Origin: Candidatus Chisholmbacteria bacterium RIFCSPHIGHO2_01_FULL_52_32
GTDB lineage: Bacteria; Patescibacteriota; Microgenomatia; UBA1400; Chisholmbacteraceae
Assembly: GCA_001816585.1 (NCBI GenBank)
Contig: MHCJ01000003.1
Location: 650,681-714,680, forward strand
Direction of reading: 5' to 3'
DNA: 64,000 nucleotides
The notes under the pieces are model-generated. The model saw only the letters and a program-made list of their open reading frames with translations, did not search any database and was not told where the DNA came from. The position numbers and the translations under genes were made by a program. Below are positions 18,086-36,168 of this stretch, piece after piece (the first letter of the stretch is position 1; the number at the start of each line of letters is the position of its first letter).

Positions 18086-18250
18086 CGCGCCAAATTATAG
18101 CACTCGGCAGCGAGGATGCATCGAGATCCCGAGGGAAAAGATCTTTTTTTGATTTTTTAGTGTAGTGGCGATTTGGAAGCGTCTTCTAAACGGAGAGATG
18201 AGCGGGGGGGGATGCAGTTTATTAGGGGGGTTACGGTGGAGAACTTGTTT

Positions 18251-18490
18251 CTACTCCTGATCTTCATCTTTTCGCATTTCAACATCCGTCATCGCCGGTA
18301 TCCATCCCAGCTTGGCGCAGGCAGCAAAAATGGTCTCCGCCTGGACCTCCACTTCATCCTGTGTTGATCTGTTTTTCATTCTATACGTTTTCATAGAACA
18401 AATATGACCTTTAATTAAATGAAGTAACTTGATGGGCAGGAGGTGCACCGTTGTTTCACCTTCGATCAAAATAGGCCGATAGTGTAGCAT
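18251..18490 (-). CDS. small hypothetical ORF at the left edge of the AT-rich island
   Basis: 79-aa ORF with no motif. It may be a remnant. Confidence 0.2.
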   Translation of the reverse strand: MLHYRPILIEGETTVHLLPIKLLHLIKGHICSMKTYRMKNRSTQDEVEVQAETIFAACAKLGWIPAMTDVEMRKDEDQE

Positions 18491-18713
18491 ACATAGCCTA
18501 TAATTGCAAATTGTTCAACATACCTTCCACTCTGACGCCTATCGGTATCTTTCCGGTGTATTTTATCCGTAAAAGAATTTACTATTCCCGGAAAGAAAGG
18601 AGAGAAAAATTGAACAACCTAAGATTGGGTCCGGTGTTTATGTGTTACGCGAGGATCCGAGGGTATTTAGCCGTCATGTGTTTTTCCATCCCGAATATTG
18701 TTCATTTTCTGAG

Positions 18714-19763
18714 TTAATCCCCGAGATTTTCTTTATTCAAATTAAAATTTACCTTATAGGTGTACAGTGTAATATCTTTTTGATCTTGAAGAGAATACTT
18801 CAACTTCTCTTCTGCTTCAAGAACGATAATTACTCCTTTCACCATCCTGCCATTCGCTAGTTTTCTTTTTACCCAAGAAATATAGCGAAGTGTTTGTCCG
18901 ACTACCGCATCAGATGACCTTCCCTTTTTGAGTTCAATAATAAGATATTTCTTATCATCTTTTGACTTCACGAGAATATCGATAAATCCTATATCTGTGG
19001 AGTATTGCTTACTTTCCAACTCATTTCCCTCACTATATAACAGCTCATACTCATCGCCGAAGATCGTTTTATTCCAGTTTGCGATAAGAAAGTCTTCGAG
19101 GTGCTTTTCCATTCCGAATACTGCGGGATCTTCAATACCATGTTCTCTTAATTCTTCCTCAATTTGATCTTCGTTCTCTTCTTCTTTTTCCGCGACAGGA
19201 CTTGCTCCTACGATATCCCCAAGTACTCCGTCCAGTTGCCACAAGCTGATATTATGCATCGTCGATAACTCAAGAAGTACTGCATTAATATTTTTATATT
19301 TGTTGCCAAACTTATCGTTTCTTTGAAAATCAGGAAAGAGATTCAATTTTTTTAGAGCAGTCTCACTTTTCGTATTCCATACGCCATATTTTTCCGGATA
19401 AACAACAAGAAGAATTGCGGTTATTACGGCTCGACCTATCCCTTTTACCCACAAACCACCATGTTCAATAAATTCAGTATTCAGTCTCTTTTCAATAGGC
19501 ATTTTTTCATCCAAGACATATTTTAAAAATCGTCTAAGAGCATCCATATCTGAAGTTATCAGTGTCCCTTGTCTGTGGATACCCTCCCAATGAAGGTTGT
19601 TTTTTGTCAGGAGGAAGGATTTAAAATCTTCCTTTGAGAGCTTGTCAAGCTGTGATGGATGGAATACCTTGCCGTATTTACCGATTACCTGCCGTTCAGA
19701 ATCTTTCCACCAGGGGCTTTTAGCTTTTTCGGCAATGGTTGTTTGAATCAAATCTTGTCCCAT
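18714..19763 (-). CDS. two-domain protein with C-terminal NucS/DUF91-like PD-(D/E)XK nuclease domain
   Basis: C-terminus IDILVKSKDDKKYLIIELKKGRSSDAVVGQTLRY (D...ExK...QxxxY) is a typical restriction-endonuclease-like fold. The N-terminal ~220 aa are unknown. Confidence 0.6.
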   Translation of the reverse strand: MGQDLIQTTIAEKAKSPWWKDSERQVIGKYGKVFHPSQLDKLSKEDFKSFLLTKNNLHWEGIHRQGTLITSDMDALRRFLKYVLDEKMPIEKRLNTEFIEHGGLWVKGIGRAVITAILLVVYPEKYGVWNTKSETALKKLNLFPDFQRNDKFGNKYKNINAVLLELSTMHNISLWQLDGVLGDIVGASPVAEKEEENEDQIEEELREHGIEDPAVFGMEKHLEDFLIANWNKTIFGDEYELLYSEGNELESKQYSTDIGFIDILVKSKDDKKYLIIELKKGRSSDAVVGQTLRYISWVKRKLANGRMVKGVIIVLEAEEKLKYSLQDQKDITLYTYKVNFNLNKENLGD

Positions 19764-19878
19764 AGTTTATCCTGGCAGGATTATTCCAGATAAGAAAAGC
19801 TGGAAGAGAAAATTCAAATCCCGAAGCGTCTTCGCGTATCTCTTCAATATCGAAAGATCGGACTTCTTGACAGCATTG

Positions 19879-20553
19879 TTATTTTTTCCCAGACAGAACG
19901 ACCATGGCTTTGTCTCCCAACAACAGCCGTAACAGAGGATTACTTAATCGGTCTTTCGTCGGATGGAACTTTTTTAACAGGTTGTAACTGTTATTCAATA
20001 CGCTTTCGGCTGTATCAGCTTCATTGAGCAACATTGTTTGATAGATCTCCAGGCATGTTTCTTTTTGTGTTTCCTCTAATTGCTCAAAGCTAAAATAACA
20101 GTCAGACAAACGGCTTTGCTGCAATCTGTAATCCAGTTCCACTAGCTCATTTGCGCTTTCTATTGCAGAGCTGTAGTAGATTTGTATTTCTCCCTGAATT
20201 TCAGGATCAAGTTCGACGGTATATTTGATGGCTTCAGAGTTTTGCCATACATTGCTGATGTATTTGAGAGGAGTATGGTAGTAATTCGGTAATTGTTTTT
20301 CCCTCACCTGATTTTCGTTCTGCTCTATTCTGACGCCGGCCCGTATGGCATTTGTGACGATTTCATTTTCGACTGCCTCGAGGATCCTTTGTTTCTGGAT
20401 GACTTCCTGAAGCTGTACTGTGGCAATATTGACGACAAGGCTGAATACCGCGCCGAAGATGAGCCCTCCCACGAAGTTATCGATTCTCGACTTCTTCAGG
20501 ATCCGGAAAGGCCAGGTGAAGAAATAGGTTATTGAGCTGATGAGTCTCCTCAT
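19879..20553 (-). CDS. hypothetical membrane-anchored protein (upstream partner of the nuclease)
   Basis: 224 aa with an N-terminal TM and a helical remainder. Same strand as the nuclease, 115 nt upstream. Confidence 0.5.
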   Translation of the reverse strand: MRRLISSITYFFTWPFRILKKSRIDNFVGGLIFGAVFSLVVNIATVQLQEVIQKQRILEAVENEIVTNAIRAGVRIEQNENQVREKQLPNYYHTPLKYISNVWQNSEAIKYTVELDPEIQGEIQIYYSSAIESANELVELDYRLQQSRLSDCYFSFEQLEETQKETCLEIYQTMLLNEADTAESVLNNSYNLLKKFHPTKDRLSNPLLRLLLGDKAMVVLSGKK

Positions 20554-20744
20554 GGTAGGTATGATCTTTTTATACCGATAAAAAACTGCCCTTTCGGACA
20601 GTTGGTATATTCTACCACTTCACTTGATAATCGGATGCCTTTTTAAGCTTTCCCTTATATACCATATCGTAACTTGACAGCAGCTACCCATTTCTGCCTA
20701 CAATTGAAAGAGTAAAACATTTCTGAAGAGGGGGGGTGATAGTA

Positions 20745-21434
20745 ATGGCGAAAAATGCAGGAATTTTCGATGATACCAAGAAACTTGTCATAGTCTTGGT
20801 ATTGCTGCTCTCCCTTCCTGTGGCACTGAGTCTTGTCAAATCACGCTCAAACATCATTTCCCAGGCAAGACCGGATGCTGTTACAGGGAGTGGTGCACCG
20901 AACGGTCCGCACTATAACCTGAACATCATCGGAGTCCCAAAGCAAAAATCTGCGGACATGACCGGAAGCGAGGGCCATCGCATTTTTGTCTCATTGGTCG
21001 GCAAAACCAAGATAAACTTGACTGAAGGAGAGGACTACCAGGTGCTCGATGCCAACGGAACAGATGGAACGGCAGCATTTCAATTACCCAATCCCGACCC
21101 TGACAACGACGGCATAACGGAATATTCGGTTTGGGCCAGACCCTTGGGGAAGCCTGGAGGAAAATCATCCACAACCACCTGTGCAGTTGATGAATTGGGT
21201 CAGGAATGGTGTTCCGTCTATACGCTCGTTCTCGTCCGCGAGGCAGGCAACAGTAAATTCACCGATGTCTCAAAGCAGTTGCTCTATATATATGTTGACC
21301 TGAATGGAGACGGGGCGGTCGAGCGTTATCCGCTCTTTGACGATGCGCTCCAGGGTTACTTTTGGAACTATGATAACCAAGGAATGAAGCTGGTGCAATT
21401 GAGGTTCTATCAAGTGATCTCAAACGTCAACTGA
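20745..21434 (+). CDS. hypothetical secreted/membrane-anchored protein
   Basis: N-terminal hydrophobic signal-anchor, Gly/Asp/Thr-rich middle. No known motif. Confidence 0.45.
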   Translation: MAKNAGIFDDTKKLVIVLVLLLSLPVALSLVKSRSNIISQARPDAVTGSGAPNGPHYNLNIIGVPKQKSADMTGSEGHRIFVSLVGKTKINLTEGEDYQVLDANGTDGTAAFQLPNPDPDNDGITEYSVWARPLGKPGGKSSTTTCAVDELGQEWCSVYTLVLVREAGNSKFTDVSKQLLYIYVDLNGDGAVERYPLFDDALQGYFWNYDNQGMKLVQLRFYQVISNVN

Positions 21435-21558
21435 CATTTCGTCAAGGCGATATCCTGTCCGGTGTGGGATTCACTCTGCTTTTCGGAGCAGGGAAAGTGT
21501 TGTGTTGGTGGAAAGTAAGAGAGGTTAAGGAAACATTACTCACGGAGTGTTTTGAGCA

Positions 21559-22020
21559 TCAACGCGAGATCGCCCCACCCGCGTAGAAGAAGAAGTACAC
21601 TTCTTTTCCGCTCTTATAGATTTTTTCCGATCCGGACATTTCATCTATTGATCCCGGAGAATCCGGAATACACTCGTAGCTGTAATTCTCAAGTACCCAC
21701 TCAACCTTTTTCCATATTCTTGTTGTATTCCAGTTCTCAAGAAGAGCCTTCCGGAGGACTCGATCAATTTCTTTCTCGGTCAATTTCCGGAAATTCCCAT
21801 AGTAGCTCATCGACCATACCGGATGATCGCGGAAATACACAGTTTCAAGGCCCATGAAGATCCCCCGACCGGTGTAATAGATATCCCGATACAGCCAATC
21901 ATGGTTCCTATACTCGAGTTGGGTTAAGCCGGAAAATACCGGTTTGACTTGCCCTCCCGCCCCTGCATAGGTCTTGGTTCTCGCTTGAAGGAGAAAGTCC
22001 GTGAGTTTCGTCTTCTTCAT
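21559..22020 (-). CDS. hypothetical protein (DUF5680-like)
   Basis: 153 aa. The WLYRDIYYTGRG...WSMSYYG pattern is recalled from the DUF5680 family (low certainty). Confidence 0.4.
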   Translation of the reverse strand: MKKTKLTDFLLQARTKTYAGAGGQVKPVFSGLTQLEYRNHDWLYRDIYYTGRGIFMGLETVYFRDHPVWSMSYYGNFRKLTEKEIDRVLRKALLENWNTTRIWKKVEWVLENYSYECIPDSPGSIDEMSGSEKIYKSGKEVYFFFYAGGAISR

Positions 22021-22050
22021 AAGCTCACAAAGTATCCCAACTCAAATCTG

Positions 22051-22066
22051 GCGGAAGTATAGCAAA
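22051..22066 (-). promoter_or_regulatory. conserved promoter-like motif (TTTGCTATACTTCCGC) upstream of 21559..22020
   Basis: Second copy of the motif described at 17215-17230. Confidence 0.35.
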
Positions 22067-22114
22067 TATGGAGAGGCAATAGCGTCGAGTAGCCGGTCTC
22101 TTCACGAAAAGAAA

Positions 22115-22378
22115 TTATTTATAGAGCTGACTGTGAGTACCGAGCGCATCAAAAAAGATAAGATTCTGTTGTGGGAATTCTCGGAAAATAGCCCGCCAGT
22201 CACCTGTGATGTTGATGCTCCGGTATCCTCTAAGCCTTCCGCTCAATTCATGATTGTGGAGAATCGGATCATTCGGTTCTTTCTCGAAGCGTTTGAGTCT
22301 GGTATCAAATGCGTCCTGAATTGCTTTTGGAGTTTTATCGTACTGCTTTCGGAATTGCCGACTGAACCGTACCTGCAT
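22115..22378 (-). CDS. RelE/YafQ-family toxin
   Basis: 87 aa; MQVRFSRQFRKQYDK...HELSGRLRGYRSINITGDWRAIF is typical YafQ/RelE. Confidence 0.8.
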   Translation of the reverse strand: MQVRFSRQFRKQYDKTPKAIQDAFDTRLKRFEKEPNDPILHNHELSGRLRGYRSINITGDWRAIFREFPQQNLIFFDALGTHSQLYK

Positions 22379-22661
22379 CGAACCTATTCTTCCTCTTTAG
22401 CCAGGTAATAGCTTCTTTTGCAGTTTTAAATCTTGGAGAAACCCGACCGGCTTGCCTATTTTTCTCAGATGCTTCAAGCACGCGCAGGAGATACTCGCTG
22501 GGCTCTTCTTTTAGCGTAAAATGCACAGACTTGGAGCGCACCAGATCTCTAAGGTAGGCATTGATCAAGGAACTCAAGCTGAAGCCCAACTGCGAAGCCA
22601 CTCGCTGAGCCATGGTCTTCATTTTGATATCGGTTTTGATGTTGATTACAGCGGTATTCAT
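22335..22661 (-). CDS. DinJ/RelB-family antitoxin
   Basis: MNTAVINIKTDIKMKTMAQRVASQLGFSLSSLINAYLRDLVR is typical DinJ. Start set at the internal Met (track ORF to 22808). It overlaps the toxin start by 44 nt. Confidence 0.75.
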   Translation of the reverse strand: MNTAVINIKTDIKMKTMAQRVASQLGFSLSSLINAYLRDLVRSKSVHFTLKEEPSEYLLRVLEASEKNRQAGRVSPRFKTAKEAITWLKRKNRFDAGTVQSAIPKAVR

Positions 22662-22712
22662 ATATGTACGTAGTATATACATTATATACACTATTGTCAA
22701 TACCTTAATCTG

Positions 22713-22727
22713 GGGAAGTATAGCAAA
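22713..22727 (-). promoter_or_regulatory. conserved promoter-like motif upstream of the DinJ/YafQ pair
   Basis: Third copy of the TTTGCTATACTTCC motif. Confidence 0.35.
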
Positions 22728-22790
22728 TCTTGAGAGATCTCCGGTTCGGAGAATGCGCCGAGAGGTCGGACCTCTATACAACAGGACGAG

Positions 22791-22927
22791 TGACAAGGTC
22801 ACACGCATATGCGTGTTCGGTGGTCAGCATTAGTCGCAGCTCAGAACTGTATACACTATATTTTCAAACTTATTTCAATGAATCGATTCATTGAAATTGT
22901 ACGGAATACTATTCGTTGCAGGTCGGA
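22791..22927. repeat. composite repeat, copy 1: A-box (tgacaaggtcaCACGCATATGCGTGttcggtggtcag) plus a 98-nt unit with internal 20-nt perfect palindrome tcaatgaatcgattcattga
   Basis: Identical by eye to 24227..24363 except for 2-3 nt in the A-box. Confidence 0.9.
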
Positions 22928-22996
22928 GCTGTAAGGAAAAATGAGGGTAAAAAATCCCGAGGTGTCCCCAGTGGAGTAGAAGCCTCCACGGGGCAA

Positions 22997-23021
22997 GCTT
23001 GAGAATTGCACCTCCCAGGTG
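22997..23021. repeat. C-module repeat gcttgagaattgCACCTcccAGGTG (copies also at 23504-23528 and 28236-28260)
   Basis: Three identical copies, each containing the palindrome CACCTCCCAGGTG. Confidence 0.85.
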
Positions 23022-23091
23022 TAATACAATCCTGAGTTGGAAGAGTGGAAGAAGAGTCATCAGATATGATATTGTGATGTTAACGTAACAT

Positions 23092-23439
23092 ATGAAAGAC
23101 GAGTGGATTTCATATACGGCTGGGGTTACTCAGTTTCTCTTTTCTGTGTATTACTTTTTCACTGCATTTCGTATTTCGGCAATCTATCAGAATTTGAATG
23201 TTCCACAACCAAATCCGGTGTTTCAGAACCTGCCAGCCATTCTGTTTCTTTTCTTCGCGATAGCAAACCTCTATTACGGGTATGCTCGAAAAACAGTAAC
23301 TAAAAAGGGGAAACAGATTCGGTATTCTTCCATAATTAGTATCATACTTATGATACTTCCATTCGCTGTAATGTATTTCTTCGCTTATTTTTCTTCAATG
23401 AATGTATTGAAATCTATTCAGGAAATGGGCGTCTATTAA
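23092..23439 (+). CDS. small hypothetical membrane protein (cassette ORF)
   Basis: 115 aa with 3-4 hydrophobic helices, flanked by repeat modules. Confidence 0.45.
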   Translation: MKDEWISYTAGVTQFLFSVYYFFTAFRISAIYQNLNVPQPNPVFQNLPAILFLFFAIANLYYGYARKTVTKKGKQIRYSSIISIILMILPFAVMYFFAYFSSMNVLKSIQEMGVY

Positions 23440-23503
23440 CTCCTTCAATTTTTTTTATAATCCTATTCTTCGGGCAGAATCATGCCAGCTTTGGAAATGG
23501 AGT

Positions 23504-23612
23504 GGCTTGAGAATTGCACCTCCCAGGTGGAAGACTAACCAACTGGTACGCGATCGCGTGGGAGGTGGTCAGAATTGGTTACAGGTCGCTCCTGCAAGAA
23601 AAGCAGATGTGG
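23504..23612. repeat. C-module + A-box variant (CGCGATCGCG core) + B-module hairpin (ttacaggtcgctcctgcaa)
   Basis: Concatenation of three repeat modules seen elsewhere in the array. Confidence 0.8.
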
Positions 23613-23682
23613 AGAGGAAGAAATAAAAAGCCGATTTCCCGATGTGTCTTGAGGTAACCACTCCCGGTGTGGAATCTCCCGT

Positions 23683-23754
23683 AGCTGCAAGAAATTAAAG
23701 CCTTTAAGGATAAAATCTTGAGGTGTCTTGATTAAATCACCTCCGGGGGTGATT
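23683..23754. repeat. B-module (ctgcaagaaattaaagcctttaaggataaaat) plus D-module (aatcacctccgggggtgatta) at the 3' end of 23737..24069
   Basis: D-module copies also sit at the stop codons of two other minus-strand genes (28425-28448, 29482-29503). Confidence 0.8.
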
Positions 23755-24069
23755 ATACTGAGCCATGCGTTGCTGAAGAAGAGTTATTATACGTATCCCG
23801 ATCATAAAAACAACATACCAAATAACTAGATTCAACAAAAGATTTACAAAAGTAAATTTCAGTTCACATTGAGGAAGAAAATCGATATTCGGATGTTGCT
23901 GGACAAATTCATCTACTTCTCTTGAATATTTACATTCGTAACTAAGAAACTTCGGAGCTCCAACTTCTCCCACAAGATAGTAGAATTCGATTACATGGAT
24001 GGCAAGAAATATGACAAGAAATAGAAGCAGTTCGCGCTTGGTAGGTTTCAAGAATGCAATTGAGAGCAT
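23737..24069 (-). CDS. small hypothetical membrane protein (cassette ORF)
   Basis: 110 aa with 3 hydrophobic helices. Confidence 0.45.
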   Translation of the reverse strand: MLSIAFLKPTKRELLLFLVIFLAIHVIEFYYLVGEVGAPKFLSYECKYSREVDEFVQQHPNIDFLPQCELKFTFVNLLLNLVIWYVVFMIGIRIITLLQQRMAQYNHPRR

Positions 24070-24226
24070 AGCTGCCTGTCAAAAGATTTCCTCTATTCCC
24101 ACTGATAATATCACTTATACCACCTCCGCGGTGTTCAACACCAGGTTGGTCAACATTTTCGTTAACCTCGACATTCTCAAATTCTTAAGAAATTGAGAAT
24201 AAAGAAGAAAGATAAACTTGGGAGAC

Positions 24227-24363
24227 TGACAAGGTCACACGCATAGGCGTGTCCGGTGGTCAGCTTTAGTCGCAGCTCAGAACTGTATACACTATATTTT
24301 CAAACTTATTTCAATGAATCGATTCATTGAAATTGTACGGAATACTATTCGTTGCAGGTCGGA
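24227..24363. repeat. composite repeat, copy 2 (A-box + identical 98-nt unit)
   Basis: See 22791..22927. Confidence 0.9.
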
Positions 24364-24382
24364 CCTCTTCACGACAGCATAA

Positions 24383-24510
24383 TGACAAGCAGACATGCGA
24401 TCGCGTGTTTGGTGGTCAGATGGGCAGATGAGATGAGTTTAGTGGGTTGCAGGTCGCGGCGACAAGAAATTGAAGCGTTCAAGGATAAAATACCGAGGTG
24501 GCTTGGCTTG
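24383..24510. repeat. A-box variant (CATGCGATCGCGTG) followed by a full B-module (gggttgcaggtcgcggcgacaagaaattgaagcgttcaaggataaaataccgaggtggcttgg)
   Basis: The same A+B arrangement recurs at 27134-27262 and 28270-28375. Confidence 0.85.
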
Positions 24511-24844
24511 GATTACTCCCGGAGTTGTTCAGGTACTCAAGCTTTACCATTAGAATCCCGGTGTGGATCAACACGCTTTTCACTGAAAGCGCTTCCTTTT
24601 GACTCTCACCGGAGGCTTTGATAGACTTACTCAACAAATGAAGGAATCGAGAATGATGGGGAGAGAATTGGCTCGTTGATCCATCTAGCAACCGAGTCAG
24701 ACGGCATGTCAGACCGCGGTGCTCCACCCAACCCTGTATAGAGGGAAGGATTAGTCCAAACCTGCAATCAGCCGGGCGGAAAAATGGTTTACACCTCTTC
24801 TCTCACAGAAGAGGTTTTTTTTATGAAACAGAGGTGAAAAGAAG

Positions 24845-26407: not shown

Positions 26408-26408
26408 G

Positions 26409-28448: not shown

Positions 28449-28680
28449 TACTTGTCTTGATTTTTCCGTGAAGCTTTCTATCGGTTTCGGTATTGATCAC
28501 TGCTGCCAACTCTGCTTCATCCTGGTATTTTTCCGGTGTAACGGAAAACCAGCAGTTATCATCACCAGGCTTATAGTTCACTCTCAATTCGTGTTCATCA
28601 GCACCCTCGATATCCAATGCGATACTCTGATCTACCAATGCTCTGACCTTTTTGAAGTCCATATTTTCACCGCCTTTCAA
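28444..28680 (-). CDS. small hypothetical protein (cassette ORF)
   Basis: 78 aa, acidic. No motif. Confidence 0.35.
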   Translation of the reverse strand: MKGGENMDFKKVRALVDQSIALDIEGADEHELRVNYKPGDDNCWFSVTPEKYQDEAELAAVINTETDRKLHGKIKTSI

Positions 28681-28709
28681 GGATCGAACGTTGATAATTG
28701 TAAGATATT

Positions 28710-28925
28710 CTATTCGAACCGATTCCCTCTCGCTTCGGTATCCTCTCCTTCATCCTGAATGCCAGTATCAAGTCCAATGAATCTATTGTTAAAGAACTTG
28801 TTACCTTTTCCTCTGTTCAGAATCCCGATGCGTTTCGTTCTTTCGATCGGATTTTCGCTCGGATTCGATCGCCCAACATTGACATGTAAATGTGGTTCGA
28901 CTTTGACATTATTGATGTCGCCCAT
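28710..28925 (-). CDS. small hypothetical protein (cassette ORF)
   Basis: 71-aa ORF. Confidence 0.3.
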   Translation of the reverse strand: MGDINNVKVEPHLHVNVGRSNPSENPIERTKRIGILNRGKGNKFFNNRFIGLDTGIQDEGEDTEARGNRFE

Positions 28926-28940
28926 GATCCACCTCCTTCC

Positions 28941-29171
28941 TTAAAGTGTGGTTGTCGTCGATGAATTGTAAATGCTGGTTCCAGATGCGGTGGTAGTTGT
29001 CAAAGTAAAAACATCCCATCGTTCAACTGTTCGCTGTGGTTCAGCCGGAAGGTCATGATGTACACGACAATAGCCTTTTGTGCAGGCAAGATACGGTGAT
29101 GCCAAGCTGGCGCAAATGCAGATGGCAAACCCAGCCTTCTTAGCGTAATCAAGCCATTCAATGTCGTTCAT
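28941..29171 (-). CDS. small Cys-rich hypothetical protein (cassette ORF)
   Basis: 76 aa with a CICAS...C..YC..HH cluster and a Thr-rich tail. Confidence 0.3.
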   Translation of the reverse strand: MNDIEWLDYAKKAGFAICICASLASPYLACTKGYCRVHHDLPAEPQRTVERWDVFTLTTTTASGTSIYNSSTTTTL

Positions 29172-29481
29172 GTTGCCCTATCTCCTATGTTTCCGTCCGT
29201 GCTTCTGACTGAGAGCACTTCCGGCAACGGATTTGGTCCTTCGAGTAGTACGCCTGCTCCTCAAAAGTGAGGATGCTTTTCGAGCTACCCTCCTACTGGT
29301 TACCTTTGGATGCGCCATGGTTGTTCGCCTCCCTTCATTAGCACTCGATAATATTGACTGACAATATAGAACGAAAAAAAATGCTTGTAAAGCAGAAAAA
29401 TGCCCGAAGCAATATCAAGGTGGTGGACGTTCGTGCTCCTACCTCAAGGAACTGGCTGCCGCAGGCCTGGGGTGCTTAGAG

Positions 29482-29503
29482 TAATCCACCTCCGGGGTGG
29501 TTA
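29482..29503. repeat. D-module (taatccacctccggggtggttaat) at the stop of 29508..30479
   Basis: Third copy of the D-module. Confidence 0.8.
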
Positions 29504-29507
29504 ATTG

Positions 29508-30479
29508 TTATTCATATTTTTCATTCCAGCGATCAGTCAAAGCTGTGTACGTGTATGCATCAGCTACTAAGTTTGCGTATGTCTCATCATTATTGTAGGT
29601 TTTTGCAATCTTAATGACTTCGTTCCTACGTTCATCGCTAATCCACTCTCCATAAACACGCTGATTGGCGAAATACTCCTTTACGGCTAAGTCTACCGAT
29701 TTTTTATCATTCAGGGGCTTGGTTGAAGTGACTTGCATTATGCCATAAGTTCCTCGTCGGATAATGAGGGATTTGATTCTTTCTAAAAACCTGAACCATT
29801 TTGGTCGCTGGATATTTTCGACAATAGCAACGGCAAGAACGATAGCTTTGTCAGCGTGAAATTGTCTACTCTTTATCTCAATTTCGTCAATTAGGTTGTC
29901 ATCAATTGTTGCAAGCGACCGTTGAAATATCTCTGCTGGATGTTGATCGCGATTTTCGTAAGTCTTGTAAATTAATACAGCTAGACCAGCTCCTACAAAA
30001 GAAGACCATATGTTATCAACAAGTCCCTGCCATGTCGGGAAAAATGAGCCTACATACTTTGAATTTGACGCCCACCCGCTGAAGAATCCAGTAATAGGTA
30101 TGGATAAAATCGAAAAGATATGCACTAAATACTGGGAATATACATTAAAAAATCGTTTCAATCTCCCAGAGCGAATAATTAATTGTAAGAGAGCTCTACC
30201 ATTATGTAATAGGGTATGAAGTGAACCTATAGTAATTCCAACGATGAGATGTTGATTTATTGATAACTTGCTCCCAAACATTGAGATGGCTAAATTTATC
30301 GCAATAAATATTGGGATCATTCGAAAGGAGACGAACCGGAGTGGAGAAATGCTAATAAAAAGACTTGTGAAGTCTGATGTGCCGAAGTAAATATCTGGCC
30401 ATCTGTTTTTGAATATCCAGTAAAATATTTCTATAAAAAACAATCCAGCACTGATAACGATCAAGACATCGGGAATCAT
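29508..30479 (-). CDS. polytopic membrane protein with C-terminal lytic-transglycosylase (SLT)-like domain
   Basis: About 6 TM helices, then AIVLAVAIVEN...RGTYGIMQV resembling the SLT catalytic Glu and GLMQ motifs. Confidence 0.5.
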   Translation of the reverse strand: MIPDVLIVISAGLFFIEIFYWIFKNRWPDIYFGTSDFTSLFISISPLRFVSFRMIPIFIAINLAISMFGSKLSINQHLIVGITIGSLHTLLHNGRALLQLIIRSGRLKRFFNVYSQYLVHIFSILSIPITGFFSGWASNSKYVGSFFPTWQGLVDNIWSSFVGAGLAVLIYKTYENRDQHPAEIFQRSLATIDDNLIDEIEIKSRQFHADKAIVLAVAIVENIQRPKWFRFLERIKSLIIRRGTYGIMQVTSTKPLNDKKSVDLAVKEYFANQRVYGEWISDERRNEVIKIAKTYNNDETYANLVADAYTYTALTDRWNEKYE

Positions 30480-30592
30480 AAGAATGATGTGCCAACCTTA
30501 TACTAGCATCAAAAAGTGAACTCTATCGCCGAAAAAATCCGCCCTTGCGAGTCTCAAATAATCTCTATGGCACAGCTTAGTATTAGATTGTT

Positions 30593-32494
30593 TCATCCGG
30601 CCAATATCTTATGAATTCTGTGGGCATATTTATCAATTAACTGGGCCCTTTCAAAATTAATGGCTTCAGGAATATTGCTCTGAGGATATGTTGTTCTTCC
30701 GGTTTCAACTTTCTTTCGAGCAATTTCTCTACAAACAACATCAGTTACTAGCTCACCGATTAATACTCGTGCATATCTTTCGTTTTGATTCTCCCCATAA
30801 GGACCTATGTACATTTTTACTGAAGGTGCTTGCGTCGCAACAGTGATTATTCCGCTAGCTCTATCAAACATAACCCTGTACCGAGGATCTTCTTTGGGGC
30901 TGTATGTAATATCTTTAAAGAGACCTTTATTCTTTGGAAGTCCATCCACAATATCCGTCGGTTCTTTCGGTTTTGAACGAACTTCTATTAGGCACTCTGC
31001 TTTGAGTTCTCCAAATCTGGCGGTAAGCAAACCGAGGGCCCCTACTTGTCTGCCTTCAACTTTTACAGTCTCTGATGCAACATTACCAATTACATCAGAC
31101 TTTTGAAATTGAACTTTTGGCGTATGGACGATGAGCTCTTCTGAATCACTTTGGATTAATATCTCTTTATTGAATGGTATCGTATGGGGAACTAAGGCCC
31201 TAAGAGTAATGCTCTTAATCTTTCCGCTTACTACGGTTGTTATTGGTGGCAGGAAGGCAAAACCATTTTCTGGAATTTCCGGCTGCCTATGTAGGTCCTC
31301 ATCTAATCCAGTATCGCTTACCTCATCTCCAAGTTCCTCTTTTGTAATCTCACCAAGATCCTTCAATAATTTTTTAAATCGTTCTTTGGTTTCTCTTGTT
31401 TCAATATCCCTTTCTTCCTCCTTTCTTCTCATTTTTTCTTCTTTAATAATCGGTTCAAGAATTTCTTCAACGGCCAACTTTAATGATTTTATAAATGGAT
31501 GTTTGTTATTAAGCTCATCTCTTTTATCAGATATCACCTCCTCGCCTGAATTTAATAAGGTGTAAATATATTCGCATGTTACTTGACCAAATAGTCTTTC
31601 TGCTTCAGGGGAACTATCATATTTAAACAGTGTGATATCGTGTATGGCCTTACCATCTGATATTAATAACCCATTCTCTCTGTATGGACCCGCCTCCTCC
31701 CTCCCGCTCAGCGGCAATTCAGATCGATTGATTTCGATAGTAGCGTCGATTCTTTGACCTTTATAGTTAATAAAAAAAGAAGCTTGATATATCTTTTTTC
31801 CTCTTGGTGTTTTGTAGGAAATTTGAACTGGTTCACGCTTTTTATCTCCTTTATCTGATCGCTCAATAAGCTGCACAATCCTGTTTGGATCTTGGAGAAT
31901 GTTTCTCAGACTAAAATACTTCTGTAGTTGTTCTTTTAATCTCTCGAATTGAGGTGTTTTAATTTCTTCTCTGGTAGTTTTAAGTGTTACCTCCGTCCCG
32001 CAATCATAGATTCCTAGTCTACCCTTGTGTGTTGCCTTGACGGTTACAGGTGATTTTGAGTCATAATAAGCTTTATCATCAACATCGCATTCATATAGAT
32101 AGCCGTTTTTTACTGATCTAACTCTTCCATAACCAACGCCTACCATAGCTTCCTTCAATCCTCTTCCATAGTAACCTCTTACTATAGTCGGTGATTCACG
32201 GCCGCTCGTTTCTCCTCCATAACGGCCGATCTTTTCATCCATCTGCTGTCTATCAAAGCCTTCAGCTTGATCGACAACTCGAAAAGTAGATCCTATTCTT
32301 TTTCTTACAATTTCAATATGAATTAATCCTGATGTTTTCGAGTCGCTTTTTTCTATTCGACTATAGCTATCATCAGAATTTGTTATAAGTTCCACAAGAG
32401 CATATACGGGAGAATCTCCAACAAGTTGCTTCGCATTCTGAATTAATACTCTCGTCTCGATGTGTATTGGCCTTCTCTTTGTGTCCATAATCAA
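30593..32494 (-). CDS. MORC-like GHKL (Bergerat-fold) ATPase with a charged coiled-coil linker and an unknown ~200-aa C-terminal domain
   Basis: N-box ELITNSDDS, G1-like VVDQAEGFD, G2 GYYGRGLKEA (the G-x-Y-G-x-G-L-K pattern seen in MORC/MutL-type HATPase_c_3). Third gene of an operon with 4-nt overlaps. Confidence 0.65.
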   Translation of the reverse strand: MIMDTKRRPIHIETRVLIQNAKQLVGDSPVYALVELITNSDDSYSRIEKSDSKTSGLIHIEIVRKRIGSTFRVVDQAEGFDRQQMDEKIGRYGGETSGRESPTIVRGYYGRGLKEAMVGVGYGRVRSVKNGYLYECDVDDKAYYDSKSPVTVKATHKGRLGIYDCGTEVTLKTTREEIKTPQFERLKEQLQKYFSLRNILQDPNRIVQLIERSDKGDKKREPVQISYKTPRGKKIYQASFFINYKGQRIDATIEINRSELPLSGREEAGPYRENGLLISDGKAIHDITLFKYDSSPEAERLFGQVTCEYIYTLLNSGEEVISDKRDELNNKHPFIKSLKLAVEEILEPIIKEEKMRRKEEERDIETRETKERFKKLLKDLGEITKEELGDEVSDTGLDEDLHRQPEIPENGFAFLPPITTVVSGKIKSITLRALVPHTIPFNKEILIQSDSEELIVHTPKVQFQKSDVIGNVASETVKVEGRQVGALGLLTARFGELKAECLIEVRSKPKEPTDIVDGLPKNKGLFKDITYSPKEDPRYRVMFDRASGIITVATQAPSVKMYIGPYGENQNERYARVLIGELVTDVVCREIARKKVETGRTTYPQSNIPEAINFERAQLIDKYAHRIHKILAG

Positions 32495-33147
32495 TCCCTT
32501 CTTTTAAGCATCCCCCCGCGTTTTCCTACAAATAGCTCTTCTTTGAAATTTTCCTCACAAAAGTGAAGTAAATTCATAATGTCGTCTCTGCCATATAGCT
32601 CTACATACTGCTTAATTTCAATAAGATTGTCTTTTTTGGTAAGAGGTAGGCTATCCGGTGTACAAAAAATTAATTCATAGAAATCTAATGGCTGAATTTG
32701 ATCTCGTTTCCCAACTTTGTACAAATGGTAAGCCTTACTTTTCTCTATTCTCTTTACGAATATTCCTGCTCTTGTTCTCTCGTCTCCTTTACGTCTAACA
32801 ATAACCACATCTCCTGAAGAAGGGGCTAATTTGTTGTGTATTCTCTCTGCAGCTCTGGTACCAAGAGGTGTGATATTAAATCCCCGAGAAGTACTACCGG
32901 TAATATAATGCTTGTCAGTTCTACATCGGAGCCACGTTTTATTGACTAGGGATGAATCTGGCCACTCTGGGTGTCCGATCAGATGGAATCTAGATGGAAA
33001 AAGTGTAAAAACTTTCTCGACCAGATTCTCAAATGTCGGATTCTTATTCGTTTTAAGCAAGGAAAAAAGTGCGTACGTTACCAATTCGTCATACGAAATT
33101 TTCATGTAAACATCAGGTTCATAAAGCTCACGAGGTTTTGAGATCAT
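32491..33147 (-). CDS. hypothetical protein (middle gene of the GHKL operon)
   Basis: 218-aa ORF whose ATGA overlaps both neighbours (translational coupling). No recognisable motif. Confidence 0.5.
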   Translation of the reverse strand: MISKPRELYEPDVYMKISYDELVTYALFSLLKTNKNPTFENLVEKVFTLFPSRFHLIGHPEWPDSSLVNKTWLRCRTDKHYITGSTSRGFNITPLGTRAAERIHNKLAPSSGDVVIVRRKGDERTRAGIFVKRIEKSKAYHLYKVGKRDQIQPLDFYELIFCTPDSLPLTKKDNLIEIKQYVELYGRDDIMNLLHFCEENFKEELFVGKRGGMLKRRD

Positions 33148-33359
33148 AACCTAAATTCCTTCTTCTTTTTCTTAATAAAACGAGCCTTCGTCATCTTAAG
33201 TTGGGAATCGATTGCGTAGAAGATCTTATTGATCTCTTCATCGGAGTAATCGTAATTTGCTCTGTTGGAGAGATTTCCGAGAATTCGAAGTTTCTCGAGG
33301 ACGATATTTGTTCTTTGTACTGCCAGGCGTTTAAATCTATCTTGTCGTGTTTCTGTCAT
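33144..33359 (-). CDS. small basic protein, possible DNA-binding regulator (first gene of the GHKL operon)
   Basis: 71 aa with a predicted helical core RFKRLAVQRTNIVLEKLRILGNLSN and a K-rich tail. Confidence 0.4.
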   Translation of the reverse strand: MTETRQDRFKRLAVQRTNIVLEKLRILGNLSNRANYDYSDEEINKIFYAIDSQLKMTKARFIKKKKKEFRL

Positions 33360-33681
33360 AGGAACATTATCAATTGTGTATAAACAGCGCTATTATACCA
33401 TATATGGTATCATTTGTAAATATCTAATATTAGAAAATGATAATCTAATATTGCCTGATCTGTATATAAACCTTCACTTGAGATAAATAAAAACTGCCCT
33501 TCCGGGCAGCATTTGATTGTGTTCCTAAATATCCTAGTTCTCAAGTGCTCTTCAAGATATGAACTTTCGCTGATGCTATATCTCAGAGTTAGACACTATT
33601 ACCAGATAATCTGATAGTTTTGTTATTGACACTTTCGTAAAACTTTCATATAGTTTAACCGTTACCTTACAGTTCGTCATT

Positions 33682-35094
33682 ATGCTTACACCTAAACAAA
33701 AGAAAGTACTAGATTTCATAACATCTTTTATCAAGACAAATGACTATTCTCCATCATTAGAAGAAGTCGCGAAGAATTTTAAACTCAAGTCTGTTTCGAG
33801 TGCGCATCAATTTGTTGATGCCCTCCATAAGAAGGGATATTTAAAAAAAATAGAGAATCAACAGCGCTCAATTGAACTAATAATTGGATTGGTAGAGATC
33901 CCTTTATTTGGTTATATTTCCGCTGGTGAGCCTATTGAGGCTATTTCGAATCCAGAACCCATAAAAGTACCTCACAAGATGCTCTCGAAGAGTGGTCTTC
34001 ATTATGCACTAAAAGTTAAAGGCGATAGTATGGTTGATGAAGGAATAAATGACGGAGCTACAGTCATAATTCGAAGACAAGAGACGGCTACGAACGGCCA
34101 AAAGGTAGTCGCTCTTATAAACGGAAATGAAGCGACGCTCAAGAAGATTTATAAAGAGAAGAAAGGTTTTAGACTCCAGCCAGCAAATTCCAGCATGAAG
34201 CCAATTTTCGTAAAAGATTTAATAATTCAAGGAAAAGTGATAGGGGTACTACCAAACTATGAAGATACAACTAGACCTACGGGGAAAATAGCTCAAACCA
34301 AAATTCCTACAAAATTTGCTTTAGACAGGATTATTTCTGGTGATGTTTTAGAGGTAATGTCTCAAATTCCTGATAATAGCATTCATCTAGCTATAACTTC
34401 CCCGCCCTATAATGTGGGTAAAGATTATGACAACCATAATGATCGTATGAATTATCAAGAATATTTAGAATGGCTTGAGAAAGTGTGGAGAGAAACAAAA
34501 AGGGTACTTGTACCAGGGGGAAGGTTTGCACTAAATATTGCTCCGACAGGAATCAAAGATTTCGTACCTATTCACCACGATTTCGCAAATCAATTGCGTA
34601 AAATAGACATGAAATTTAGAACAGAGATTATTTGGTACAAACAAACAATGCTTAAACGTACTGCCTGGGGAAGCTTTAAAAGCCCAGCGAATCCTCATAT
34701 AGTACCATCGTGGGAATATGTATTAGTTTTCTCAAAAGACAAAGACAGGCTGGATGGAGATCAGAAAAACTCTGACATAACAAAGCAAGAGTTTATGGAT
34801 TTCTCTGATGGATATTGGAAAATACAGCCTGAGACAAAACGAAATGGACACCCGGCACCTTTTCCCGAGGAATTAATTTACCGCCTCATAAAATTCTATT
34901 CTTATAAAGGAAATACTATTTTAGATATGTTTGGTGGAACTGGAACAGTTGCAGTAGTGTCCCACAAGACTAAAAGACGTTTTATACATATAGACATTTC
35001 AGAAGAATACAACAGGGTAGCACAAAAACGCTTGGATGCCATCAAAAACCCCCCACAACTTTTTGGAGAGAATTCCTACCGGTTTGCTGCCTAA
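33682..35094 (+). CDS. fusion: LexA repressor (wHTH + S24 autopeptidase) plus beta-class N4/N6 DNA methyltransferase (SPPY, m4C-type)
   Basis: Residues 1-~200 align to E. coli LexA along their length: LTPKQKKVLDFI, the cleavage-site SAGEP, Ser nucleophile GDSM, Lys in ATLKKIYK, and PANSSMKPIFV. Residues ~215-470 carry MTase motif IV TSPPYN followed by motif I FGGTGT. It is a single uninterrupted ORF. Confidence 0.8.
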   Translation: MLTPKQKKVLDFITSFIKTNDYSPSLEEVAKNFKLKSVSSAHQFVDALHKKGYLKKIENQQRSIELIIGLVEIPLFGYISAGEPIEAISNPEPIKVPHKMLSKSGLHYALKVKGDSMVDEGINDGATVIIRRQETATNGQKVVALINGNEATLKKIYKEKKGFRLQPANSSMKPIFVKDLIIQGKVIGVLPNYEDTTRPTGKIAQTKIPTKFALDRIISGDVLEVMSQIPDNSIHLAITSPPYNVGKDYDNHNDRMNYQEYLEWLEKVWRETKRVLVPGGRFALNIAPTGIKDFVPIHHDFANQLRKIDMKFRTEIIWYKQTMLKRTAWGSFKSPANPHIVPSWEYVLVFSKDKDRLDGDQKNSDITKQEFMDFSDGYWKIQPETKRNGHPAPFPEELIYRLIKFYSYKGNTILDMFGGTGTVAVVSHKTKRRFIHIDISEEYNRVAQKRLDAIKNPPQLFGENSYRFAA

Positions 35095-35124
35095 ATACTC
35101 AAAGCGGTTCGAAAAACTATAGAA

Positions 35125-35940
35125 TTAGCCAAATAATGTTTTACCTTCAAGCACCCCTTCATCAATTGGCTCATCAGTAAAATTGGGAACAACCTCTTGT
35201 CTCCAGATCCTTAGGTCGGAAAAAAGCGGTTTTCCTCCGTCAGTCCTGGAAAAATCCAGTTTTTTAACTTGGGAACATTCAGTAGTACTTGGGTGTGTTG
35301 AAAAAACGCGATCCAAATAAGCTTCCGACTTTTTTCGTAAGCTACTTGCTTCATTATCGCCTTTGACGAACTTCTTATCCAAATCTTGAGTTACCAAGCA
35401 ATATTTGATGTTGTTATTTCGAAGTGCTAAAGCCCAGAACAAAACAGCATCGTTTCTGGCATGGTCACTTGTCTTACAGTTTAAAAGCGCAAATACTTTG
35501 AGTCTACCGCCTTGTTCTTTTGATAGCACAACTATATCGGAGTCTGGCCACACGCCGGTGGTTGTTTGAACGCAGCGTCGTCTAGCATCTAAAGTTAAAA
35601 ATCGCACAATTTCCTGGGCTCGTGGCTTTTTTCTGAGATGATCTCCTTTTACGGCCACTATCCCTTCGTTGTTCAAGTTTTCATTTATGATATTTCTAAT
35701 GAATATTTCAAAATTATTTCCACTGGCTGCTACCCAACTCTGCCTTGCCTGGTTTAAATTTCCTCTGCCTTTTTCCTGATAGAGTCTAATGTAAATTTTC
35801 TGAGTAGTCTCCATGACCTTTCTTTCAGGAACTTCCTCCAATTGAACAGTGTTCAAGATCCTCCCTACATCATTAATGGGTTTATTCCCAAAGCTCTGCA
35901 AATCCCGTTTTGCTTTTTGATAAATTATTTCGAAATCCAT
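35125..35940 (-). CDS. putative type II restriction endonuclease (convergent partner of the MTase)
   Basis: 271 aa with a PD...(D/E)xK-like stretch (WPDSDIVVLSKE). The position convergent to a methyltransferase fits a restriction enzyme. The motif assignment is weak. Confidence 0.45.
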   Translation of the reverse strand: MDFEIIYQKAKRDLQSFGNKPINDVGRILNTVQLEEVPERKVMETTQKIYIRLYQEKGRGNLNQARQSWVAASGNNFEIFIRNIINENLNNEGIVAVKGDHLRKKPRAQEIVRFLTLDARRRCVQTTTGVWPDSDIVVLSKEQGGRLKVFALLNCKTSDHARNDAVLFWALALRNNNIKYCLVTQDLDKKFVKGDNEASSLRKKSEAYLDRVFSTHPSTTECSQVKKLDFSRTDGGKPLFSDLRIWRQEVVPNFTDEPIDEGVLEGKTLFG

Positions 35941-36110
35941 AAAATATTGATTGTGAGTGTACTAATACTAATAGTTTAACACAAACACCAGACTAAAACT
36001 CCGTCCGTATAGATTACCTCGCCGTAATAGCTATTGCAGGTCCAGCATGCAAAAGTATGAAAGGTGTTTACGGGATGTCAAGTGTAGTTTAGCGAGCTTA
36101 AGGGGATTTA

Positions 36111-36168
36111 GGGGCTCCCAGTGAGATAGGCAAGCCATCTCACGGGATCAGAGAGAAGTTAGGGGAGG
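36111..36168. ncRNA. conserved ~55-nt hairpin element, copy 1 (family also at 39260-39313 and 56730-56786)
   Basis: ggggctcccaGTGAGATaggcaagccATCTCACgggatcagagagaagttagggg. Copies differ by compensatory stem changes (GTGAGAT/ATCTCAC versus GTGGGAT/ATCCCAC). Confidence 0.5.

Follow-up and report, generated by a model that had tools for sequence, protein, structure and literature searches.

The genomes of bacteria of the Candidate Phyla Radiation (CPR, or Patescibacteria) are tiny and streamlined, and the acquisition and turnover of accessory genes in them are little understood. Among the described systems that come closest to the locus studied here, the repetitive extragenic palindromes (REP) and bacterial interspersed mosaic elements (BIME) of enterobacteria and the Neisseria intergenic mosaic elements (NIME) or Correia-type elements are mosaics of short extragenic palindromes and possible substrates of recombination. 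The pdif modules of Acinetobacter plasmids are small gene modules, often toxin-antitoxin (TA) pairs, bounded by 28-bp XerC-6-XerD sites in alternating orientation. In 2008, Iyer, Abhiman and Aravind reportedly linked prokaryotic GHKL ATPases of the MORC/paraMORC type to restriction-modification (R-M) and conflict systems. The cassettes of chromosomal integrons have been reported to encode defence systems and TA pairs (bioRxiv 10.1101/2024.07.02.601686; PMC13108822), and clusters of attC sites lacking an integron integrase have been described as CALIN (Cury et al. 2016, PMC4889954). Here, we analyse 64,000 nt (hereafter, the window) of contig MHCJ01000003.1 from Candidatus Chisholmbacteria bacterium RIFCSPHIGHO2_01_FULL_52_32 (assembly GCA_001816585.1), a Microgenomates member of the CPR from the Rifle aquifer with a genome of ~1.16 Mb, a size at which genomes lack complete integrons according to the IntegronFinder survey (PMC4889954). 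The subject is an AT-rich interval that lies between rpf and vapBC, upstream of greA, and includes an array of gene cassettes delimited by short palindromes.

The region as a whole is of a known kind, a defence island at a hotspot. Like other such islands, it has an atypical composition, it clusters an R-M pair, a PDC-S02 nuclease, TA pairs and an ATPase module, it varies between strains, and it sits between conserved housekeeping genes. It differs from them in having no integrase, tRNA or flanking direct repeats, in belonging to a CPR host with a ~1.16-Mb genome, and in that part of it is a repeat-delimited cassette array. The account that we consider probable is that the interval is a plasticity zone upstream of greA, which combines several independent acquisitions with a repeat-delimited cassette array exchanged between strains.

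Composition and boundaries of the interval

The GC content of 1-kb tiles is 0.421 (sd 0.040, n = 18) within 18-36 kb and 0.517 (sd 0.028, n = 46) in the rest of the window (Mann-Whitney p = 4.2e-9). In 300-nt bins, it falls from 0.553 (17850-18149) to 0.38 (18450-18749) on the left and rises from 0.353 (35700-35999) to 0.517-0.547 (36000-36449) on the right, placing the edges at 18.15-18.7 kb and 35.95-36.1 kb at this resolution. The GC content at third codon positions (GC3) follows the same pattern, with values of 0.30-0.56 for the 20 genes of the island against 0.56-0.74 for most flanking genes, Rpf (0.48) and PIN (0.46) being among the exceptions. The tetranucleotide distance from the host profile is about twice as large within the interval (139-270) as outside (97-145). 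The low GC is patchy: 0.37-0.40 at 18.7-19.8, 23.1-24.1 and 29.5-36.0 kb, and 0.43-0.49 in the rest of the interval. Independent contigs from a large number of samples cross the two edges at 99.5-100% identity, which rules out an assembly or binning artefact as the source of the composition island.

Pfam searches of the sizeable open reading frames (ORFs) of the window found no integrase, transposase or recombinase domain, and no structural, replication or conjugation gene of a prophage or of an integrative and conjugative element (ICE); PHROGs gave one weak match, to a family of no assigned function. The sole tRNA of the window, a tRNA-Gln at 7191-7262, is 11 kb from the interval, and we found no direct repeats flanking the latter. 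The preliminary description of this DNA, made from its letters alone, had reported a change of composition from ~18.1 to ~36.1 kb and the lack of an integrase, transposase or flanking tRNA. Both observations stand: the GC, GC3 and tetranucleotide profiles agree with the former, the sliding GC and codon-usage check that it had proposed gives a profile that is not uniform, and the domain searches and the position of the tRNA agree with the latter.

At the left edge, a conserved ORF of 47 aa (18251-18394, - strand) is preceded by a TGCTACACT promoter. Its homologue in a relative with an 83%-identical SRAP (L101:1934-2077) is placed on the opposite side of SRAP, which makes the position of the left boundary ambiguous.

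A cassette array built on oriented palindromes

The array extends over ~22.1-28.4 kb, and its presence had been anticipated in the preliminary description. One of its elements, P, is a palindrome of 38-40 nt (TGACAAG-N4-CACGC-ATAT/GATC-GCGTG-N3-GGTGGTCAG) with copies starting at 22788, 23533, 24224, 24380, 26368, 27051, 27131, 28054, 28133 and 28267. Exact P right arms number 10 in the window, where 0.15 are expected. All 10 copies are on the + strand, an outcome with a probability of 0.002 under random orientation, and they are confined to 5.5 kb, the other 58.5 kb of the window holding none. Their spacings range from 79 to 1988 nt, and each interval between them is either empty or filled with about one ORF or TA pair. 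They are interleaved with three other elements: H1 (GTTGCAGG-N5-CCTGCAAGAA; 8 matches vs 0.26 expected), S (AAAATnCCnAGGTGGCTTG) and H2 (CACCTCC-SR-GGTG; 9 matches vs 0.26 expected, with one copy outside the island, at 9447). In the array modules these elements follow the fixed order P-H1-S-H2, in one orientation.

The centre of P is symmetric to the last base, and two central pairs switch jointly between AT·AT and GA·TC (96% paired). Conservation is highest in the arms, and 7-10 of 14 distinct copies have an unpaired mid-stem. We rejected a structured RNA because of these unpaired mid-stems and the fully palindromic centre; judging from the pattern of conservation, P fits better as a double-stranded site for protein binding or recombination. 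Scans of the island for promoters and terminators gave results at chance level; hence, promoter or terminator activity alone does not explain the repeat modules.

In a scan of JGI metagenomes, true copies of P occurred only on array-like contigs from the Rifle aquifer, and P was absent from 1.28 Mb of loci of distant relatives. The palindromic elements are therefore lineage-specific and confined to arrays. The four matches of the P pattern in viral contigs lack the left arm and are chance-like, and most single metagenome matches are likewise due to chance.

The array also shows internal rearrangement. The segments 22788-22930 and 24224-24366 are a duplication of 143 nt (97% identical) that begins at a P edge and ends in the loop of H1. 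It yields a hybrid hairpin, in which the left arm of H1 is joined to GAGAGGTCGGA|CCTCT (an H1/H3 hybrid) with ~8 nt of shared identity.

Two further hairpins were observed. One, of 29 nt (CCCC-AGTGGAG...CTCCAC-GGGG; 22967-22995, L137:107-145, L013:77-113, L130:363-400), sits between S and H2 in some modules, in either orientation, and is absent from others; this nested behaviour resembles that of miniature inverted-repeat transposable elements (MITE). The other, of terminator type (AAAAACTGCCC-TTyC-GGrCAG), stands at three module borders in the island, one between the two genes of hypothetical proteins (Table 1) and the others at 28397-28417 and 33489-33509.

The cassettes carry diverse cargo (Table 1). 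The DinJ/YafQ pair of the preliminary description is confirmed by Pfam, as YafQ and RelB/DinJ, and this cassette has its own TTGACA-17-TATACT promoter. Others consist of a single gene for a small membrane protein, a PaaX_M/Cas2-like protein or a small ORF. One cassette opens with a leader (24641-24756) resembling the S-adenosylmethionine (SAM)-I riboswitch, which matches RF00162 over its full length with 38 bits, below the gathering score of 44.4, and retains the core nucleotides with a weak P1 stem. This element aside, which is itself below threshold, Rfam gave nothing at gathering thresholds in the island. The 338-aa protein encoded behind the leader has no match in Pfam, PADLOC, PHROGs, NCBIfam or the sequences of the PDB.

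In the window, the motif TTTGCTATACTTCC has three exact copies, a number that none of 100 shuffles attained, and these precede yedK/SRAP, DUF5680 and the TA pair by 26-56 nt. The motif looks like a host-type extended -10 promoter. The yedK/SRAP copy (17217), at 26 nt from the gene, falls outside the island, and since the motif also serves this host gene it is not specific to the island. Promoter motifs had been described as reused inside the island; two copies are indeed there, but the third, upstream of yedK, means that they are no island signature.

Sibling strains diverge at the repeats

The preliminary description had raised repeat-mediated recombination, and this is supported by contigs of sibling strains that depart from the window exactly at hairpin repeats. 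Contig L013 is 99.8% identical to 36784-40310 of the window (~3.5 kb) and differs in its first 215 nt. It holds an intact hairpin, ATTGCAGGTCC|GACCTGCAAT (a TTGCAGGTC-C-GACCTGCAA palindrome), the two halves of which are 740 nt apart in the window, and the breakpoint is the centre of this H1 palindrome. Rightwards from 36784, L013, L157 and the window are 99.5-99.9% identical. Contig L157 is 99.9% identical from 38557 down to 36583 (~2 kb), the exact edge of an inverted H2 module, beyond which it carries a 289-aa gene, an HTH_3/Gp49 (HigAB-like) pair and a HicA (HicAB-like) pair, with inverted modules between them. The ends of four more contigs lie no more than ~60 nt from the inverted module, as would be expected where the strains part.

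The left part of the array varies in a similar manner. Contig L137 is 99.6% identical over 22101-25147, and left of 22101 an S/H2 module replaces the DUF5680 gene of the window. The YafQ/RelB unit (22101-22717) is found in L146, 95.5% identical, between other P-H1-S-H2 modules, and is thus a discrete cassette unit. A module of 144 nt is 98% identical between contigs L130 and L137, which then continue into different cassettes; DUF433/DUF5615 and BrnT/BrnA pairs are carried between array modules by L130 and L140. We failed to join the variant contigs into one alternative array, as they share modules and not cassettes.

Misassembly is unlikely to lie behind the variant junctions, because the repeats, at 19-40 nt, fall far short of the assembly k-mers (k = 141) and of the reads in length, and because L013 and L157 have 2-3.5 kb of flank that is 99.5-99.9% identical. 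An apparent deletion in L007 (22561-22683) proved to be merely a run of Ns.

At the right edge, the two halves of the split H1 enclose a segment of 740 nt with the HlyD fragment and an inverted copy of the hairpin (Table 1). The edge in composition at 36.05 kb is therefore not the end of the variable zone, which reaches at least 36783. A truncated adaptor gene, ccgacctgcag repeats and a hairpin copy had been placed just outside the island; all of them are present, but within the variable zone. The VapBC unit is 99.9% identical in contig L165, where a K+-channel-like ORF lies beyond VapB in the place of the bactofilin-like gene of the window. This different neighbour suggests that VapBC is probably another movable unit, and the variable zone probably extends to about 37.8 kb.

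The interval is a mosaic of modules

The other blocks of the interval have distributions of their own. The largest protein of the three-gene GHKL module has a Pfam match to HATPase_c_3 just under threshold. Its structural model (predicted local distance difference test, pLDDT, 86) has a GHKL and transducer fold, which matches Hsp90, TopoVI-B, MORC, SMCHD1 and GyrB with a Foldseek probability of 1.0; the best target-normalised scores are to the ATPase modules of MORC3, MORC2 and SMCHD1. The predicted fold thus identifies the protein as a member of the GHKL ATPase superfamily with a Bergerat fold and a transducer domain, in support of the GHKL operon that had been proposed. The family is rare, with 40 members among 5.8e9 proteins, and no homologues were found on plasmids. 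Three unrelated contexts elsewhere contain the GHKL and 218-aa genes at 35-62% identity, two of them with a detectable 71-aa gene as well. Identities over the three genes are 64/57/62% in L151, where the module is beside a Schlafen-like ATPase among ruvABC and ribosomal genes, and 52/39/39% in L153, where its neighbours are a resolvase, a fragment of an integrase and an HsdR-like gene; in the Anaerolineales genome L155, detection was limited to the 218-aa and GHKL genes. In these contexts the module is accompanied neither by the R-M pair nor by the gene of the 323-aa membrane protein. Neither the operon nor the 323-aa protein has a match in PADLOC, PHROGs, NCBIfam or the sequences of the PDB. 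The module resembles the MORC/paraMORC-type systems in that its GHKL and transducer fold is nearest to MORC/SMCHD1 modules and in lying beside an R-M pair in the window. It differs in forming a 40-member family with no PADLOC match, in having 71-aa and 218-aa partners of its own, and in that the adjacency to R-M genes is not conserved. Scattered as it is over phyla, it is a candidate for a new defence system.

The R-M pair was correctly recognised in the preliminary description, to which Pfam adds that the methyltransferase carries a complete LexA-like repressor, with DNA-binding and S24 self-cleavage domains. This architecture is present in >120 Microgenomates clusters at 63-83% identity, and the BsaWI-like gene adjoins it in the three contexts checked (L167, L169 and L170). 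In all three, the pair has a lower GC content than its surroundings; the values are 0.38 vs 0.52 in the window and 0.34 vs 0.40 in L169. The methyltransferase is 80-83% identical between lineages, the endonuclease 46%, and GreA and Rpf 48-54%. The fusion suggests a damage-responsive control of the R-M system, or else that this protein serves as the LexA of the lineage.

The nuclease at the left end had been called NucS-like. Its match to NucS is restricted to the C-terminal PD-(D/E)XK domain (Pfam E = 3e-9), and we rejected a true NucS identity, since its NCBIfam scores of 31 and 27 bits are far below the cut-offs (216 and 252). The nuclease domain of the earlier claim is thus retained, but the protein is of the candidate defence family PDC-S02 (PADLOC E = 8e-50). 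Its plasmid homologues, in haloarchaea and Paracoccus, are 34-37% identical over 91% of the length, and its N-terminal half resembles DUF3578-annotated proteins on plasmids. It is plausibly a modification-dependent, restriction-type enzyme. The 224-aa and 232-aa proteins encoded next to it have no match in Pfam, PADLOC, PHROGs, NCBIfam or the sequences of the PDB.

Defence-type systems are therefore clustered in or near the interval (the type II R-M pair, the PDC-S02 candidate, YafQ/RelB and VapBC, along with a GHKL module that PADLOC does not recognise), and the foreign composition and the defence and addiction genes are those of the horizontally acquired defence island that had been proposed. 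Yet, given the separate distributions of the GHKL module, the R-M pair and the TA cassettes elsewhere, it is a mosaic and not one island: at least four modules (the PDC-S02 nuclease block, the cassette array, the GHKL module and the R-M pair) are independent.

A comparison of synteny had been suggested as a way to find the empty site, and it yielded no clean one; L013, L157 and L137 show instead other content at the same flanks. Look-ups of the exact SRAP, GreA, Rpf, PIN and YafQ proteins returned no empty site, all long contigs being from the same population and with the island. The closer SRAP relatives (83% and 76%) are on contigs of 4.2 kb and 2.8 kb with a different gene order and no empty site. 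Among species representatives, the nearest relatives of GreA are from Gottesmanbacteria and other Patescibacteria, with ~50% identity. Several genes of the window recur near greA in these and other Microgenomates: a homologue of its PDDEXK_1 gene 0-5 kb from GreA in L037, L033 and L041, with an order and orientation unlike those of the window, a DUF5680 gene in L021, a PaaX/Cas2-like gene in L036, and the R-M pair within 7 kb of GreA and of an Rpf-like gene in L169. This gene content suggests that the surroundings of greA may be a long-lived variable neighbourhood, and hints at a disrupted neighbourhood, rather than an empty site, in the distant relatives.

Table 1. Features of the AT-rich interval and its edges (positions in the window).
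Feature	Position	Strand	Remarks
AT-rich interval (compositional island)	18151-36050	none	GC 0.421 vs 0.517 in flanks
28-nt motif copies with TTTGCTATACTTCC core (TGnTATACT extended -10)	17212-17239 (-), 22048-22075, 22709-22736		
PD-(D/E)XK protein (NucS_C-like C-terminal domain), 349 aa	18714-19763	-	Pfam, PADLOC PDC-S02
Hypothetical protein, 224 aa	19879-20553	-	Intermediate GC
Terminator-type hairpin	20581-20601		Between the 224-aa and 232-aa genes
Hypothetical protein, 232 aa	20736-21434	+	Divergent to 224-aa gene; intermediate GC
DUF5680 protein	21559-22020	-	Pfam E 6e-21
Promoter motif GGAAGTATAGCAAA of DUF5680 gene	22053-22066		
YafQ/RelB(DinJ) toxin-antitoxin cassette	22101-22717	-	Pfam
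YafQ	22115-22378	-	Pfam
RelB/DinJ	22335-22658	-	Pfam
Array of P palindromes	22788-28306	+	10 same-strand copies interleaved with H1, S, H2
Small membrane protein, 115 aa	23092-23439	+	Single-ORF cassette, GC ~0.37
Small membrane protein, 110 aa	23737-24069	-	Single-ORF cassette, GC ~0.37
Cassette of SAM-I riboswitch-like leader, terminator and 338-aa ORF	24641-25861	+	
Terminator of SAM-I-like cassette	24793-24815		Strong, then eight-T run
338-aa ORF behind SAM-I-like leader	24845-25861	+	
PaaX_M/Cas2-like protein, 207 aa	26409-27032	-	Pfam PaaX_M E 2e-19; Cas2 matches weak
Small-ORF cassettes	27650-27949 (+), 28444-28680 (-), 28710-28925 (-), 28941-29171 (-)		The first encodes 99 aa
H2-type hairpins	28430-28442, 29487-29499		
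Predicted membrane protein, 323 aa	29508-30479	-	Downstream of GHKL gene
Three-gene GHKL module	30593-33359	-	71 aa (33144-33359), 218 aa (32491-33147), 633-aa GHKL ATPase with transducer domain (30593-32494)
N6_N4_Mtase fused to LexA_DNA_bind and Peptidase_S24	33682-35094	+	Pfam
RE_BsaWI type II endonuclease	35125-35940	-	Partner of the methyltransferase; Pfam E 7e-10
Left half of split H1 hairpin (ATTGCAGGTCC)	36033-36043		At compositional right edge; also delimited as 36034-36052
740-nt segment inside split H1	36044-36783		TTAAGGG-type repeats, HlyD fragment, inverted H2-S-H1, first ccgacctgcag
5'-truncated HlyD fragment	36159-36614	-	HlyD_D23 profile positions 95-200 of 214
Inverted H2-S-H1 module	36583-36700		Inverted hairpin copy 36587-36599
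ccgacctgcag copies	36690, 36787		
Right half of split H1 hairpin (GACCTGCAGG)	36784-36797		
VapC (PIN) and VapB pair	36840-37503	-	Pfam; GC 0.47

Origin of the interval and mechanism of exchange

As far as we infer the donors and the direction of each event, several separate acquisitions from lower-GC donors would have filled the plasticity zone, the donors of at least the GHKL and R-M blocks probably being other CPR bacteria. At the P, H1, S and H2 elements, cassettes have been exchanged between sibling strains. A recombinase encoded elsewhere in the genome would recombine the palindromes site-specifically, which would make the locus an integron-like array without a local integrase. In such an array, the TA cassettes would provide stability, and the other cargo, unannotated genes included, would provide defence against phages or other DNA. 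Site-specific exchange is favoured by the fixed orientation, the confinement to the array, the crossovers at palindrome centres with at most ~8 nt of identity, and the units of one gene or TA pair. We put forward only tentatively, at somewhat less than even confidence, that H1, H2 or P are the sites at which an enzyme encoded elsewhere acts.

Exchange of the cassettes does not in itself require such an enzyme. The palindromes might be extragenic repeats of a selfish or structural nature (REP/BIME-, NIME- or MITE-like) that build up wherever the DNA is dispensable, and the cassettes might be swapped by general recombination, replication slippage or template switching at hairpins, with no dedicated capture system. 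This would suit the nesting of P, H1, H2, H3, S and the 29-nt GTGGAG...CTCCAC hairpin in varying combinations, and the elements found away from the array, namely the H2 copy at 9447 and an H1 site beside SRAP in the 83%-identical relative L101. It would also suit the lack of a recombinase in the window and a junction (~22098) with no repeat on the window side. Passive repeats would not be expected, however, to share one orientation and order in all 10 P copies and all array modules, to be restricted to arrays in the window as well as in the metagenomes scanned, or to bound neat units of single genes or TA pairs. RecA-type recombination needs a longer shared identity than ~8 nt, and we judged the ~8 nt of the hybrid hairpins too little for it. 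The comparison with known repeats is similarly divided: the locus has in common with REP, BIME and NIME the variable combinations of several intergenic palindromes, but those are dispersed genome-wide and often alternate, whereas P is confined to arrays and to one strand, and the window has no RAYT/TnpA-REP gene. On balance, we regard this explanation, the main rival of site-specific exchange, as rather unlikely.

In its behaviour the array recalls a chromosomal integron that lacks its integrase, but it does not belong among integrons or CALIN. The resemblance lies in short cassettes that each hold roughly a single ORF or TA pair, in imperfect palindromes that share one strand, in the presence of TA cassettes, in hybrid sites and strain-specific content, and in the lack of a nearby integrase, the window having no Phage_integrase or other recombinase domain that could represent an intI. 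The differences are that P is conserved in sequence and palindromic through its centre, whereas attC is conserved only in structure, that composite modules of several elements take the place of a single attC, and that crossovers fall at the centre of the H1 hairpin or at a module edge and not at an R box. In pdif modules the sites are likewise short and dyad-symmetric, and crossover occurs in the central spacer by a host recombinase acting in trans, which matches the breakpoints at the H1 centre. The sequences here are, in contrast, unrelated, chromosomal and in one orientation. A further-reaching interpretation, which we deem unlikely, is that the 22.1-36.8-kb region is an undescribed gene-capture array of the CPR, with composite palindromic sites unrelated to attC and a recombinase encoded elsewhere, that is, an independently evolved analogue of the integron. 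The literature that we searched contained no description of such arrays in the CPR, which is a weak negative.

Another possible source of the low GC content is a mutational or functional bias acting locally on genes of long residence; in that case, Microgenomates would have inherited the locus vertically as an ancestral accessory region. The genes found around greA in L021 (DUF5680), L036 (PaaX/Cas2-like) and L169 (the LexA-methyltransferase and endonuclease with an Rpf-like gene) are what such inheritance would leave, and the 46% identity of the endonuclease is close to the 48-54% of GreA and Rpf. Vertical inheritance sits poorly with a GC3 gap of 0.2-0.4 and sharp edges, with a GHKL module that is extremely rare and phylogenetically scattered, with a methyltransferase 80-83% identical across lineages whose GreA is ~50% identical, and with the variation between strains at the locus; we hold it to be improbable. 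Least credible of all, to the point of being very improbable, is the single insertion between rpf and vapBC of one mobile element, whether integrative element, ICE or prophage, which would since have degraded and lost its integrase, for although the low-GC stretch is contiguous with fairly sharp edges and its defence and TA cargo is typical of integrative elements, it contains at least two compositional classes and modules that are distributed separately elsewhere, it has no phage, conjugation or integrase genes, no PHROGs match of assigned function, no tRNA and no flanking direct repeats, and the differences between sibling strains concern parts of the interval, not the whole.

Several observations weigh against the plasticity zone with an exchanged cassette array that we favour. 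The recombinase acting on the palindromes is hypothetical, none having been identified, and the palindrome types are nested, as REP/BIME or MITE elements can be. No recognisable repeat was found on the window side of the junction at ~22098, nor any repeat at the left edge (18.1-18.7 kb). The ORFs of the array lie on both strands; typical integron cassettes are mostly promoterless and co-oriented, whereas here the ORFs are mixed in orientation and the TA cassette has its own promoter. A consensus scan of the window for attC sites (RYYYAAC/GTTRRRY R boxes) gave 0 candidates, although a divergent attC could escape it. The variants come from short metagenomic contigs of minor strains, every long contig having the arrangement of the window, and L130, L140 and L146 could come from a second locus instead. 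The search for an empty site through GreA in the species representatives found none, the synteny being loose and rearranged. Finally, the divergence of the R-M endonuclease from its nearest homologues, at 46% identity, is similar to that of host genes, so that, GC content aside, an old residency is possible.

Variation and repeats in the flanks

The surroundings of the interval have features of their own. The spacer between rpf and yedK/SRAP (17287-17514) is 85.5% identical to L101:348-575, where the DNA of the SRAP gene is only 78% identical. Such conservation is unusual in a spacer, which has no match in Rfam and may represent a small RNA or a short ORF; an H1-type hairpin adjoins it in L101. 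The flanks with host-like GC are also rich in addiction- and defence-type genes (12189-12714; 8-9.4 kb; 39962-40981; 48647-49507), which comprise a Phd/ParE pair located in a small islet of low GC (0.43), a pair of the HicA type, and genes for a Fic protein and an Mrr_cat protein (type IV restriction-like). The sibling contig L005 (11689-12829) departs from the window within the NAGPA gene, left of 15491, and encodes a PfkB-NAGPA fusion of 546 aa; the left host flank is thus also variable between strains. Runs of TTAAGGG/GTAAGGG-type repeats with a period of 10 nt occur in host-like intergenic regions (36083-36175, 37547-37578, 39141-39323 and ~56679-56793), and one of them falls inside the 740-nt insert at the right edge.

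Implications

The locus brings two candidate immune modules to attention, the rare three-gene GHKL module and the R-M pair with a LexA-fused methyltransferase, which is widespread among Microgenomates. The concept of the island is itself ordinary, and the main interest lies in the strain-variable array: on strain-level evidence from one aquifer, a 1.16-Mb genome keeps a dedicated variable zone where strains exchange defence and TA cassettes at short palindromes, with no recombinase encoded locally. If the exchange is site-specific, this would imply new recombination sites and an enzyme that acts at them. The locus is a tractable natural system, in which time-series metagenomes from Rifle could measure the turnover of the cassettes.

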